From Oscillospiraceae bacterium (GTDB taxonomy: Bacteria; Bacillota; Clostridia; Oscillospirales; Oscillospiraceae), in contig CACYLY010000007.1 in NCBI GenBank assembly GCA_902775355.1, positions 48 through 64,047 on the forward strand: DNA of 64,000 nt. Reading direction: 5' to 3'. Below, one piece after another: positions 16,372 to 50,673 of this stretch. Made by a program: the position numbers and the translations under genes. Position 1 is the first letter of the stretch, and each line of letters opens with the position of its first letter. The notes under the pieces are model-generated. The model saw only the letters and a list, made by a program, of their open reading frames with translations. It had not been told where the DNA came from and searched no databases.

Positions 16372-17372
16372 GCCGTCACGACCTTTCGGATCTCTCTCAC
16401 CTTGGCGGCCAGCTTCTCATACTCCTCCGGCCGCAGGGCCTGGGCCCCGTCGCACAGCGCGTTCAGCGGATCGTTGTGCACCTCCACCATCACGCCGTCG
16501 GCCCCGGCGGCCACAGCGGCCAGGGCCATGGGCGGCACCAGTCTCGCAAGGCCCGTGGCGTGGCTGGGATCCACGATCACCGGCAGATGGCTCAGCTCGT
16601 GCAGCATGGGCACGGCGGAGAGGTCCAGGGTATTGCGGGTATAGTCCGCAAAGCTCCGGATGCCCCGCTCGCAGAGGATCACCTGCTCGTTGCCGCCGGA
16701 CATGACGTATTCCGCGCTCATCAGCAGCTCCCGCAGGGTATTGGCCAGGCCCCGCTTCAGGAGAACAGGCTTGTCGCAATGGCCCAGCTCCCGCAGCAGG
16801 TCAAAGTTCTGCATGTTCCGGGCGCCCACCTGGATCACGTCCACATCGGCGAAGAGCTCCAGATCCCGGATATCCATCAGCTCGGTAACAAAGGGCAGCC
16901 CCGTCTCCGCCCGGGCGACGCGCAGCAGCTCCAGCCCTTCCGCCTTCAGCCCGGAAAAATCATAGGGCGAGGTGCGGGGCTTGAAGGCGCCGCCCCGCAG
17001 CAGATCCGCGCCGGCGGCCTTCACCGCCTTCGCCACGCCGACGATCTGCTCCTCCGTCTCCACGGAGCAGGGGCCGGCGATCATGGCAAAGTGCCCGCCG
17101 CCCACCGGAACGCCTCCGGCGGAGACCACCAGGTCCTCCGGATGGAACTTCCGGTTGCAGCACTTGAAGGGCTCTGTCACCCGGCTGACCTTGTCCACGA
17201 TCTCCAGGCTGCCCACCAGGTCCATATCCACATGGGCGGCGTCTCCGATGAGCCCCAGCACGGTCTGGAACTGCCCGTCGGACACATGCACCTGCAGGCC
17301 CTGGCGCTCCAGCCACTGGATCAGCCCCTCTTTTTTCTCCCGGGCCACGCCCGGCTTCAACACAACGATCAT
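16368..17372 (-). CDS. aroF: 3-deoxy-7-phosphoheptulonate (DAHP) synthase, type I-beta with N-terminal ferredoxin-like regulatory domain
   Basis: N-terminal MIVVLKPG..., IAGPCSVE, GAFKPRTSPY, VIVDPSHA. Confidence 0.88.
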   Translation of the reverse strand: MIVVLKPGVAREKKEGLIQWLERQGLQVHVSDGQFQTVLGLIGDAAHVDMDLVGSLEIVDKVSRVTEPFKCCNRKFHPEDLVVSAGGVPVGGGHFAMIAGPCSVETEEQIVGVAKAVKAAGADLLRGGAFKPRTSPYDFSGLKAEGLELLRVARAETGLPFVTELMDIRDLELFADVDVIQVGARNMQNFDLLRELGHCDKPVLLKRGLANTLRELLMSAEYVMSGGNEQVILCERGIRSFADYTRNTLDLSAVPMLHELSHLPVIVDPSHATGLARLVPPMALAAVAAGADGVMVEVHNDPLNALCDGAQALRPEEYEKLAAKVREIRKVVTA

Positions 17373-17393
17373 CGCATTATCCTCTTATTCCGA

Positions 17394-17424
17394 CAAAAAA
17401 TCCGCCCAGGATGCACCTGTGCGG
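17394..17424 (-). terminator. intrinsic terminator in the aroF leader (attenuator)
   Basis: Minus strand CCGCACAGG-tgcat-CCTGGGCGG followed by ATTTTTTG, 20 nt upstream of the aroF RBS AGAGG. Confidence 0.65.
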
Positions 17425-17461
17425 AAACAGCATGTTTATGAGCCCTTTTCTGCGCCACAAA

Positions 17462-17521
17462 TCAGCCCTTCCGCACGCGAACAGGAAGAGCATAGCAATA
17501 CTCGTACGCAAAAAGGTCCAT
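17462..17521 (-). CDS. candidate 19-aa leader peptide MDLFAYEYCYALPVRVRKG
   Basis: AGGAG, 8 nt, ATG (17521), stop TGA 17464-17462. Codons 4, 6, 8 and 10 are F/Y/Y/Y. Lies between the promoter and the leader terminator of an aromatic amino acid operon. Confidence 0.55.
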   Translation of the reverse strand: MDLFAYEYCYALPVRVRKG

Positions 17522-17559
17522 GTTTTCTTCTCCTTGTCTCTTTCTCTGGAGATACTCAT

Positions 17560-17588
17560 ACTATAGACGGAACCCGGGCCAAAGTCAA
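17560..17588 (-). promoter_or_regulatory. sigma-A type promoter of the aromatic operon
   Basis: Minus strand TTGACT (17588-17583), 17-nt spacer, TATAGT (17565-17560). Confidence 0.55.
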
Positions 17589-17637
17589 GACGCGATTTCG
17601 ACAAAAAACGGCAGGATCCGCGGGAAAAAGTCCACGA

Positions 17638-18345
17638 TTATTCCATTTTCAGCCGCAGCGCGTCCACCGCCCGGCGCTCCAGCCGGGAGACCTGCACCTG
17701 GGAGACGCCCAGCACCCTGGCGCAGTTCTGCTGGGTCAGCCCGTGGTAATAGCGCAGGCCGATGACCTTCCGCTCCCGCTCCGGCAGCTGCTCCACCAGG
17801 GCGCGCAGACTCACCCGCTCCAGCATCCGCTCCTCCGCCTCGAAGTCCCCCAGTACCAGCTCCAGGTTGAAGCCGTCCTCCCCGCAGGGGCTGTGGATGC
17901 TCTCGGCGGGGCCGGTGGCCAACTGAGCGAAGGCGATCTCCTCCCCGGAATAGCCCGTTGCCTCCGCAAGCTCCGACACGCTGGGCTCCCGGCCCAGCCG
18001 CTGCTCCAGAGCGAGCCTTGCCTGGTGGATCTTCGCCGCCTGCTCCTTCACGCCCCGGCTGACCTTCAGCATCCCGTCGTCCCGGAGAAAGCGCCGGATC
18101 TCCCCGGCGATCTTGGGCACGGCGTAGGTGGAAAAGCGGGTGCCGAATTCCTCGTCGAAGCCCTCGATGGCCTTGAGAAAGCCCAGGCAGCCCAGCTGAT
18201 ACAGGTCCTCCGCCTCCGCTCCCCGTCCGAAATAGCGCCGGGCCACGCTCCAGATGAGGCCGCTGTTTTCCTCCAGCAGCCGCCCCGCCGCCTCCCGGTC
18301 CCCCTGCCGGGCGGCCTGGAGCTCAGACAGCGAGAGCTCCTTCAT
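17638..18345 (-). CDS. sigF: sporulation sigma factor F
   Basis: 235 aa. Regions 2-4 present (DLYQLGCLGFLKAIEGFD, FSTYAVPKIAGEIRRFLRDDG, GLTQQNCARVLGVSQVQVSRLERRA). Follows spoIIAA-spoIIAB. ATGA overlap with the spoIIAB stop. Confidence 0.85.
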   Translation of the reverse strand: MKELSLSELQAARQGDREAAGRLLEENSGLIWSVARRYFGRGAEAEDLYQLGCLGFLKAIEGFDEEFGTRFSTYAVPKIAGEIRRFLRDDGMLKVSRGVKEQAAKIHQARLALEQRLGREPSVSELAEATGYSGEEIAFAQLATGPAESIHSPCGEDGFNLELVLGDFEAEERMLERVSLRALVEQLPERERKVIGLRYYHGLTQQNCARVLGVSQVQVSRLERRAVDALRLKME

Positions 18346-23076: not shown

Positions 23077-23393
23077 AAAAAACGCCCCGAGACTTTCGTC
23101 TCAGGGCGATGCAATACCGCGGTACCACCTGAATTCCGCTTTTCTCTGTCATCCTGAGCGAGCGAAGCGAGCCGAAGGATCTTCCCGATCCGTCGCTTCC
23201 CTCCAAATGACAGCGCAGCGGCGCTCTTCCTGCCCTTAACGCGGGCCAGACGCCGGGACTACGCAGTTTCCCTTCCCCCCGGGCGCTCGGGATCGACCTT
23301 CCGCGTCGCTTCACAGGGACTTGCACCGACCGTCCCCTCTCTGCGATCCGCAATCCGCGTACTCCTATCCGTCACAGCGCACAAATATTCGAT
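23077..23393 (-). promoter_or_regulatory. T-box riboswitch leader, valine specifier GUC
   Basis: Minus strand: Stem I with AGGAGTA and AGAGAG. Specifier loop GAAG-GUC-G (codon at 23297-23295). T-box AGGTGGTACCGCGG (23130-23117). Terminator CGCCCTGAGAC-gaaa-GTCTCGGGGCG + TTTTTT (23108-23077). Confidence 0.85.
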
Positions 23394-50358: not shown

Positions 50359-50590
50359 ACAAAAAAATAAAGCCTCCGTCCCGCACTGGGACGAAAGCCG
50401 ACGCTTCCGTGGTACCACCCACATTCGATTCCGCAGAATCGCACTCTCGGTGCCGTAACGCGCACCACACGCCGGGGATTGGCCGGAGCTCCCGGGCGAA
50501 CCAAGCGCGGATGACGTTGAGGGTTCACAGCCGCCGACCCTCATTCTCTGTCCGTCACGGAAAGCGCTATTTTCCCGATCACAGCAGGCA
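50359..50590 (-). promoter_or_regulatory. T-box riboswitch leader, phenylalanine specifier UUC
   Basis: Minus strand: AGAGA box. Specifier loop UUGG-UUC-G (codon at 50500-50498). T-box GGGTGGTACCACGG (50420-50407). Terminator stem 50400-50371 + TTATTTTTTT. Confidence 0.8.
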
Positions 50591-50673
50591 TAGACTATCA
50601 CAGTTCGCACAATTTTTCAAGAGGATTTTTGTACTTTTTGCCTGATTCACCCTGCGGAATCCGAAAGAATCGA

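Follow-up and report, generated by a model that had tools for sequence, protein, structure and literature searches.

The classical proteobacterial attenuators trpL, pheL/pheA, pheM/pheST and hisL (Rfam RF00513, RF01859 and RF00514) operate by a four-segment logic of alternative 1:2, 2:3 and 3:4 helices. The amino acids sensed by classical leader peptides are Trp, Phe, His, Leu, Thr and Ile/Val, and we know of no classical leader peptide for Tyr. From the Bacillota, the Lactococcus Leu/Phe leader is a leader peptide with an entry in Rfam. In this study, we analyzed 64,000 nucleotides (nt) of an Oscillospiraceae bacterium (GenBank assembly GCA_902775355.1, contig CACYLY010000007.1, positions 48 to 64,047; this whole stretch is referred to below as the window), on the minus strand of which an element at 17588-17373 precedes aroF, the first gene of a shikimate/tyrosine operon. 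The initial annotation of the window had proposed a leader-peptide attenuator at this site. Our analyses make it probable that the element is a ribosome-mediated leader-peptide transcription attenuator which would tune the aroF-tyrA-aroB-aroA-aroC-(CM-aroE-aroK)-aroQ operon (CM, chorismate mutase) to the supply of charged tRNA-Tyr and, to a lesser degree in this genome, of charged tRNA-Phe.

The aroF leaders of the window and its relatives resemble the classical attenuators in having regulatory codons in segment 1, a stop codon just before segment 2, a 3:4 terminator and comparable helix energies. They differ from them in lacking sequence or covariance-model similarity, in having Tyr as a probable main sensed residue, and in belonging to a phylum considered uncoupled. 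Two described systems also stand before aroF. The first is aroR of Corynebacterium glutamicum, a Phe-Tyr-Phe leader peptide 5' of aroF that was tested experimentally (Neshat et al. 2014, via PMC11802643) and for which, in the summary given there, a stalled ribosome raises readthrough and the response is to Phe and not to Tyr (PMC11802643). It shares with the family described here a short open reading frame (ORF) with Phe/Tyr codons, the 3-deoxy-D-arabino-heptulosonate 7-phosphate (DAHP) synthase gene aroF as the first regulated gene, and the same physiological logic, but it is from the Actinomycetota, has three regulatory codons as opposed to about four Tyr plus four Phe, and responds to Phe whereas our peptides are Tyr-rich. 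We assume the relationship to be one of analogy, the two having been compared by description and across different phyla. The second is uORFC-13-1, a predicted upstream ORF (uORF) attenuator found exclusively 5' of aroF, with 24 representatives in Acholeplasma and environmental DNA (Brewer et al. 2021, PMC8632094), which is composed of a promoter, a ribosome-binding site (RBS), a start codon, a Phe-encoding U-run, an adjacent intrinsic terminator and one more conserved stem (PMC8632094). It too is an aroF-specific uORF attenuator from the broad Bacillota/Mycoplasmatota neighborhood, but its description speaks of "at least one phenylalanine" and leaves Tyr unmentioned, whereas the family of the window has runs of UAU/UAC and is widespread in Clostridia. 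That description (Acholeplasma-only, Phe-only, no Clostridia hits reported) suggests that uORFC-13-1 is distinct from our family, and there was no Acholeplasma locus among the 160 aroF loci that we retrieved.

Leader peptides of the same mechanism class are also known from elsewhere within the Bacillota, namely His leader peptides in the Bacillus cereus group, Peptostreptococcaceae/Lutispora and Erysipelotrichales (PMC2965389, PMC9413887) and a Leu-rich attenuator peptide at ilv-leu of Staphylococcus aureus (PMC5794164). Unlike the aroF leaders, these serve other amino acids and operons, are unrelated in sequence, and are confined to small clades, as opposed to most of the sampled aroF orthologs. 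The initial annotation had called the mechanism unusual for the lineage, which is partly true for Firmicutes but overstated, because Bacillota leader peptides for His and Leu and the aroF uORF of Acholeplasma had already been reported, and which does not hold for aroF in Oscillospirales-type Clostridia, where such a leader is the rule. A T-box (RF00230) likewise converts aminoacyl-tRNA status into readthrough of a leader terminator; the aroF leader, however, has no T-box match, specifier loop or T-box sequence, is about 180 nt long, and contains an ORF that is presumably translated. Searches against Rfam returned no match at the gathering score in the window, none on its leader at E<=10 and none at E<=0.01 in ten relatives. 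Identity with a T-box or a known Rfam leader (Phe_leader, Trp_leader, His_leader, Leu/Phe leader, RF00230) was rejected for lack of a covariance-model match. A search of the literature for an earlier description of the Oscillospirales-type aroF leader family found only analogs.

The evidence that carries our interpretation is comparative. We collected 80 aroF loci from species-representative genomes with AroF identities of 60-88% (81 loci with the window), chiefly metagenome-assembled genomes (MAGs) labelled Oscillospiraceae, Ruminococcaceae, Faecousia or Acutalibacteraceae, plus the isolate Hominicoprocola fusiformis, and a further 80 aroF loci from metagenomes, 72 of which were usable. A short ORF with a Shine-Dalgarno (SD) sequence, an ATG and a Tyr/Phe run, followed by a terminator before aroF, was present in 135 of the 153 loci (69/81 genome and 66/72 metagenome loci), and it is this conservation, with the controls described below, that strongly supports the attenuator first proposed from the window alone. 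The layout common to the family is a sigma-70-type promoter, SD and ATG, a Tyr/Phe-dense ORF of 15-41 codons located about 150-250 nt 5' of aroF, a long hairpin and a strong intrinsic terminator; leader peptides of relatives include MSNFFFASFYYYFTDRLR, MKSIFVFAYYYYFTMDS, MQNLFAANFYYYYYFFTRKK and MTTMSSAAQFYFYYYYFFTQKK, of which MKSIFVFAYYYYFTMDS is that of H. fusiformis CLA-AA-H269 (locus L004). At least five Phe or Tyr within eight residues were encoded in 64 of 81 loci, compared with 26 of 1620 shuffles (1.6%) and one of 81 reverse complements. Together, 104 distinct leader peptides are composed of 17.8% Tyr, 16.5% Phe and 0.2% Trp, with the runs typically holding four Tyr and four Phe and Tyr being the commonest residue. 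A promoter matching at 10/12 positions or better and ending about 32 nt 5' of the leader ATG was found for 70% of leaders versus 1.1% of shuffles. Tyr/Phe sensing also fits the physiology of the operon, whose products lead to chorismate, prephenate and the Tyr branch.

Conserved hairpins and a conserved terminator could also be read by a trans-acting factor, such as a TRAP- or PyrR-like RNA-binding protein, an uncharged tRNA or a riboswitch ligand, in which case the ORF would be a by-product of a U/A-rich stem arm. This reading, which we consider very unlikely, draws on the strong conservation of a hairpin that has the Tyr/Phe codons as one of its arms. The pairing partner of the Tyr-Tyr-Phe-Phe codons (CUAUUACUUUU) in the largest subgroup is AAAAGUAAUAG, invariant across 22 species (e.g., L043:2257-2287), and since AAAAGUAAUAG includes tandem in-frame stops (UAA UAG), the regulatory and the stop codons share one helix. 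The location of the Tyr/Phe codons within an invariant hairpin implies that their nucleotides are constrained beyond the needs of coding. A trans-acting factor is also favored by the ribosome-dependent antiterminator being statistically no stronger than chance, as detailed below. Against it stand several signs of translation. An SD precedes the leader ATG in 85 of 108 distinct leaders (79%) but only 42 (9%) of the 456 further ATGs that these regions contain, with the spacing of SD and ATG kept right. Of 121 leaders, 94 have an ORF with SD and ATG over the Phe/Tyr run in the Tyr/Phe frame, and only 2 and 0 have one in the other two frames. Moreover, the Phe/Tyr codons reach past the hairpin arm, the stop codon lies at a fixed distance ahead of segment 2, and both synonymous codons are in use for each amino acid (TAT 198, TAC 218, TTT 313, TTC 72 in the family peptides). 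In four metagenome strains with an AroF identical to that of the window (L161-L164), the single nucleotide polymorphism (SNP) in 17541-17373 is a C>T at 17504 which changes Tyr6 from TAC to TAT and so retains Tyr, whereas the same strains have 2-5 SNPs each in 17542-17624 (5' untranslated region, promoter and spacer), including 17558 and 17555 beside the -10 box. The Rfam searches of the window leader and ten relatives, which yielded no T-box or other match, likewise speak against this reading.

The ORF could alternatively be translated to yield a functional small hydrophobic peptide, or translated to control aroF translation or mRNA stability and not termination. The clear selection on the ORF would suit this explanation equally well, and some attenuators do work on access to the RBS, as stated in general terms by PMC9413887. 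We nonetheless regard it as very unlikely. The peptides differ in sequence and length (15-41 residues) outside the Phe/Tyr run, as is usual for leader peptides but not for functional ones. In addition, a GC-rich hairpin and U-run separate the ORF from aroF in nearly all loci, and among those with the leader ORF a terminator was detected in 67 of 68 from genomes and 65 of 66 from metagenomes; these family terminators have folding energies of -17 to -26 kcal/mol and in nearly all loci lie 20-60 nt ahead of aroF, whose RBS is 3' of the hairpin and free in the predicted folds. That the leader is a chance ORF beside the terminator of the upstream sporulation sigma-factor operon is extremely unlikely and effectively refuted by the comparative data, for although the window's own Phe/Tyr density and alternative pairing are marginal (matched by 7% of shuffles and p=0.06, respectively) and a simple terminator scan yields as many sites in shuffles, a conserved promoter lies between the stop codon of the sigma gene (17638) and the leader, ORF and terminator recur together in 135 of 153 loci, and the element accompanies aroF, travelling with the aro operon and not with the upstream gene. 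Of 80 related loci, only one shares the sigma gene found upstream in the window, whereas 74 have tyrA and 65 have aroB after aroF. A 75-codon ORF spanning the leader (17604-17377) was rejected as a candidate gene as stop codons interrupt it in relatives.

Returning to leader-peptide attenuation, three elements expected of it are found: an ORF with SD and start codon, enrichment of Tyr/Phe codons across the family, and an intrinsic terminator between ORF and gene. At the window's locus, the promoter, SD, ORF, the codons Phe4, Tyr6, Tyr8 and Tyr10, the terminator and the aroF start lie where the initial annotation had placed them when the minus strand is read (Table 1). In a scan of 9 kb, two promoter-like sites were found versus 0.6 expected, one of which was TTGACT-17-TATAGT, and transcription is predicted to start near 17553, about 7 nt past TATAGT, giving an aroF leader of about 180 nt. 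The peptide contains three Tyr and one Phe, i.e., 4 of its 19 codons. Segment GTGCGGAA (17476-17469) is, as had been noted, the exact reverse complement of TTCCGCAC (17426-17419), although it spans codons 16-18 and not 15-17, an error of one codon. As DNA, the terminator hairpin reads CCGCACAGG-tgcat-CCTGGGCGG (17424-17402) followed by an A and T6, and its energy is -13.9 kcal/mol when the flanking U-A pair is counted. The simple terminator scan skipped it because its stem has an A.G mismatch; that scan found no more sites than in shuffled sequences and was uninformative.

From these features we infer a switch of the following kind. Transcription would start about 7 nt past TATAGT, and the 19-codon ORF would be translated as RNA polymerase crosses the leader. 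In the absence of translation, or once the ribosome has gone, the ORF region would fold into a long hairpin that buries GUGCGGAA, the terminator would form and transcription would stop before aroF. A ribosome at the TGA would cover GUGCGGAA with its footprint, with the same outcome. When Tyr-tRNA is scarce, the ribosome would wait at Tyr8 or Tyr10, where its footprint would melt both upstream helices and expose GUGCGGAA (17476-17469) for pairing with UUCCGCAC (17426-17419), blocking the terminator and allowing the operon to be transcribed. Most relatives would follow an equivalent logic with a denser Tyr/Phe run and with segment 2 as the antiterminator strand.

Constrained folding, in which a ribosome footprint of -15 to +12 around the A-site codon was imposed, was in agreement with this scheme. 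The modelled probability of the terminator was 0.94 both in the absence of a ribosome and with one on the stop codon, but fell to 0.75 for a ribosome at Phe4 or Tyr6 and to 0.02 and 0.013 for stalls at Tyr8 and Tyr10, respectively. That of the antiterminator was 0.40-0.45 at Tyr8/Tyr10, 0.004 without a ribosome and 0 at the stop codon. A ribosome-gated antiterminator, as claimed in the initial annotation, therefore dominates in the model at Tyr8 and Tyr10 and is gone at the stop codon, whereas stalls at Phe4 and Tyr6 barely switch the fold. The 8-base pair (bp) helix of the earlier scheme likewise stood, GUGCGGAA being the best partner of the window's terminator 5' arm (-15.0 kcal/mol), but the scheme had overlooked two upstream helices that hide the antiterminator strand. 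In the fold without a ribosome, these form one long hairpin (an outer helix 17516-17500 : 17462-17444 plus an inner helix) in which GUGCGGAA is buried, and the inner hairpin is predicted to hide one half of the antiterminator strand as long as no ribosome sits over codons 11-13. Once both anti-antiterminator helices are included, the modelled ribosome switch is thermodynamically coherent, and on this model the window's attenuator would essentially act as a Tyr sensor.

The window belongs to a subclade with L001 (88% AroF identity; MTFSANYYYACPAAVVRVG) and L081 (87%; MALSLCRRYYYRFTVVVR), which has modified the family design. The window reads CGGAAGGGCTGA at the site where L003 reads CGGTAAGGGTAA; its usual stop codon has been lost, its ORF is two codons longer and its Phe/Tyr run is thinned to Y-E-Y-C-Y. 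The promoter hexamers, the SD (GGAG invariant), the ATG, GTGCGG, GGCTGATTTGTGGCGC and the terminator blocks are kept in all three sequences, and their terminators are identical, including the weakening A.G mismatch. In the subclade, pairing between CCGCACAGG and the canonical segment 2 is poor, and a GUGCGG copy at the 3' end of the ORF appears, from sequence and modelled folds, to have taken over the antiterminator role there. Within the 8-bp helix GTGCGG is invariant in the three, and the A-U that the window has at pair 8 is replaced by U-A in L001. That the window is nonetheless a member of the family is indicated by a profile (nhmmer) built without the window and L001, whose only match in the 64 kb was 17465-17395 (E=5.9e-5), and by the family-wide conserved motif ATTTGTGnnGCA which its segment 2 holds directly past the stop codon.

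Among the relatives, the segment 1 core lies inside the ORF (...tTTGCnGCACAg... in the family alignment), its Tyr/Phe codons reading TAYTAYTTT(TTT)AC, and the stop-codon region (A)AAGTAA(TAG/GGG) pairs back onto those codons. Segment 2, ATTTGTGnTGCA, is located just 3' of the stop codon and is followed by a spacer and by segments 3 and 4, which have the form GCnGCACAG-loop-CTGTGCnGC plus a U-run; the post-stop AUUUGUG is almost invariant across the family. Segments 1 and 3 have nearly the same sequence and are each complementary to segment 2, which amounts to the classical 1:2 / 2:3 / 3:4 design: in most relatives, segment 1 and the terminator arm GCnGCACAG of segment 3 have a common pairing partner in the post-stop AUUUGUGnUGCA of segment 2. 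Helix 3:4 has compensatory changes in six of nine pairs around an invariant GCACAG core, and at the positions that vary, pairing with segment 2 is kept via U.A/U.G or was mismatched anyway. The stretch from the ORF to segment 2 was more stable than shuffles (median z=-2.9, with 72% of leaders below -2). RNAalifold on a 40-sequence MAFFT alignment recovered the terminator alone; the MAFFT alignment shifts segment 1 by about three columns between subtypes, so an alignment-free swap test was used for helix 1:2. Cognate pairs averaged -10.5 kcal/mol, versus -7.9 kcal/mol with segment 2 from another subtype, and were better in 70 of 79 leaders, from which segments 1 and 2 appear to co-vary between subtypes. 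The orthologous leaders thus retain the Tyr/Phe codons foreseen in the initial annotation and show co-variation in the terminator and in 1:2, but not in 2:3. In the Faecousia-type subgroup, covariation counts for 2:3 and 1:2 were compatible with the helices and gave no convincing two-sided covariation.

The geometry of the antiterminator is as an attenuator would require. Standard pairs occupy 87% of cells in the 2:3 helix versus 11-67% in slid registers, and family helix energies are about -8 to -15 kcal/mol for 2:3 and about -14 to -26 kcal/mol for 3:4. The terminator 5' arm pairs best, in most loci, with the conserved segment at +7 to +25 past the stop codon, about 25 nt past the last Phe/Tyr codon, a position which is clear of a ribosome stalled at Phe/Tyr and partly covered by one at the stop codon. 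Consistent with this, when transcripts were cut before the terminator 3' arm (segment 4; n=68, related sequences), the terminator 5' arm was paired at 0.76, 0.75 and 0.70 with the ribosome at the first, middle and last Phe/Tyr codon, as opposed to 0.58 on ribosome-free transcripts and 0.54 when the ribosome was placed at the stop codon (paired Wilcoxon p~1e-10, the sequences not being independent).

A number of observations weigh against the attenuator interpretation. The 2:3 duplex was no better than shuffled controls (median -11.6 kcal/mol, median z=-0.44), cognate 2:3 pairs were no better than swapped ones, and no two-sided covariation was seen in 2:3 when looked for, making the antiterminator helix, as judged from these comparisons, the weakest link and apparently the feeblest element across the family. 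Covariation neither confirms nor refutes the inner hairpin of the largest subgroup, which is invariant. Full-length equilibrium folds with ribosome masks had the terminator winning in nearly every state in most relatives; because those terminators are very stable at equilibrium, the switch would have to be kinetic, as in trp. Moreover, the Bacillota are counted among organisms with "runaway" transcription, whose RNA polymerase outruns the ribosomes (PMC13323073), so that an attenuator would need a dedicated pause. The window is itself a weak example of its family, as none of its Phe/Tyr residues are adjacent, and when such upstream regions were dinucleotide-shuffled, 119 of 1620 shuffles (7%) matched its density of four in eight residues. 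Support for its 8-bp helix among close relatives amounts to three sequences, of which L081 has a U.U mismatch at pair 7, and stalls at Tyr8 and Tyr10 are the only ones to flip its modelled fold. The other statistics for the window are similarly modest: its antiterminator duplex of -15.0 kcal/mol has z=-1.7 and p=0.06 versus shuffles, and the minimum free energy (MFE) of the whole leader is unremarkable (z=-0.9). Taken in isolation, the window is only suggestive, standing marginally above chance, and the significance of its leader is due to the family comparison and not to window statistics.

No T-box was found upstream of aroF in the 12 genome loci without a leader, two of which keep a terminator only. 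Two Faecousia loci (L040:2341-2500 and L050:2341-2500) have a terminator of the family type (GCTGCACG...CGTGCAGC plus a T-run) and no Tyr/Phe ORF, and look like decayed or lost leaders. At L042, the leader ORF is present and the terminator is poor in its U-run. Oscillospiraceae-like aroF genes were also found in MAGs labelled Alloprevotella, Thermoguttaceae, Lentisphaerae or Lachnospiraceae (L008, L017, L026, L032, L009, L010, L012 and L015), most of which carry the Tyr/Phe leader (L010 and L012 are without it). Such labels suggest either mis-binned contigs or a movement of operon and attenuator by horizontal transfer. In a related MAG, a flavin mononucleotide (FMN) riboswitch (L002:1340-1454, 119.9 bits) is located about 1 kb 5' of the aroF leader.

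It is an evenly balanced matter whether the window's element is the first recognized member of an undescribed family of Tyr/Phe-sensing attenuators that is near-universal in its order and controls the whole shikimate/tyrosine operon of Oscillospirales-type gut and rumen Clostridia. The mechanism is a textbook one, and the novelty is the family itself, with more than 100 distinct sequences and no Rfam match; the surprise is limited because both the mechanism and the pairing of aroF with Phe/Tyr have precedents. Tyr as a principal sensed residue would set the family apart from classical leader peptides. If the interpretation is correct, ribosome-coupled attenuation would be a mainstream regulator in a phylum classed as runaway and uncoupled, which would imply a dedicated pausing or synchronization element, possibly the foot of the invariant AUUUGUG hairpin, and provide a natural Tyr-tRNA sensor. 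Attenuation requires that the ribosome keep pace with RNA polymerase, and the family potentially represents a natural test of local coupling or pausing in Clostridia (PMC13323073). In addition, the family could be used in annotation pipelines for these abundant, poorly studied gut and rumen Clostridia, where it would account for control of the shikimate/tyrosine operon.

Table 1. Positions of the aroF leader elements and of the genes of the downstream operon, counted from the first nucleotide of the window.
Feature	Position	Strand	Remarks
Sigma-70-type promoter	TTGACT 17588-17583; TATAGT 17565-17560	minus	17-nt spacer; 10/12 match
Shine-Dalgarno AGGAG of leader ORF	17534-17530	minus	8 nt ahead of ATG 17521
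Leader ORF MDLFAYEYCYALPVRVRKG-TGA	17521-17462	minus	19 codons; read from sequence
Regulatory codons	Phe4 17512-17510; Tyr6 17506-17504; Tyr8 17500-17498; Tyr10 17494-17492	minus	
Segment 1, 5' arm of outer "protector" helix (CCUUUUUGCGUACGAGU)	17516-17500	minus	Inside ORF; from MFE structures
Segment 2, 3' arm of outer helix (AUUUGUGGCGCAGAAAAGG)	17462-17444	minus	17 pairs with 17516-17500
Inner anti-antiterminator hairpin GCUCUUCCUGU : GCGGAAGGGC	17491-17481 : 17474-17465	minus	From predicted folds; core CUCUUCC:GGAAGGG
Putative antiterminator 5' strand GUGCGGAA	17476-17469	minus	Codons 16-18 (Val-Arg-Lys)
Putative antiterminator 3' strand UUCCGCAC	17426-17419	minus	Overlaps 5' arm of terminator
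Intrinsic terminator UCCGCACAGG-ugcau-CCUGGGCGGA + U6	17425-17401; U6 17400-17395	minus	One internal A.G mismatch
aroF RBS AAGAGGA	17386-17380	minus	aroF ATG at 17372
aroF	17372-16368	minus	Pfam: DAHP synthase with N-terminal ferredoxin-like domain
tyrA (prephenate dehydrogenase)	16371-15541	minus	Pfam
aroB	15544-14480	minus	Pfam
aroA	14507-13227	minus	Pfam
aroC	to 12154	minus	Pfam
CM-aroE-aroK fusion	12163-10679	minus	Pfam: chorismate mutase, shikimate dehydrogenase and shikimate kinase; 494 aa
aroQ (type II dehydroquinase)	10682-10236	minus	Pfam
DUF554 membrane protein	10239-9529	minus	Pfam; last gene of operon

The genes from aroF to that of the DUF554 protein each overlap or abut their neighbor, and the Pfam assignments agree with the DAHP synthase, chorismate mutase and prephenate dehydrogenase that had been assigned to the operon. 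It is without pheA (prephenate dehydratase), even though Phe codons are prominent in the family leaders. The DUF554 protein may be a transporter of aromatic compounds.

Two T-boxes that had been reported in the window are real, although both score below the Rfam gathering cut-off for RF00230 of 93 bits. One (23099-23384, minus strand; 89.6 bits, E=3.7e-18) is ahead of a YcxB-like ORF (23057-22539) and valS (22532-19896), and the other (50384-50591, minus strand; 66.9 bits, E=2.5e-12) is ahead of pheS (50244-49333) and pheT (49199-46515). With pheST under a T-box and the aro operon under a putative leader peptide, one genome would have two Phe-tRNA sensors side by side, that is, two sensors of tRNA charging working in parallel. 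A scan across the window for other amino-acid-biased mini-ORFs with SD and ATG revealed no other convincing leader peptide.

The operon upstream of the aroF leader (19133-17638, minus strand) is composed of spoIIAA (STAS domain, 19133-18795), a spoIIAB-like kinase gene (18782-18342) and a gene for a sigF-like sigma factor (stop at 17638), the latter of 235 aa as called in identical metagenome contigs versus 375 aa for the maximal ORF. By this spoIIAA-spoIIAB-sigF-like gene content, the source organism is probably a spore-former. A cluster of four tRNA genes is located near the start of the window, at 621-998 on the plus strand.

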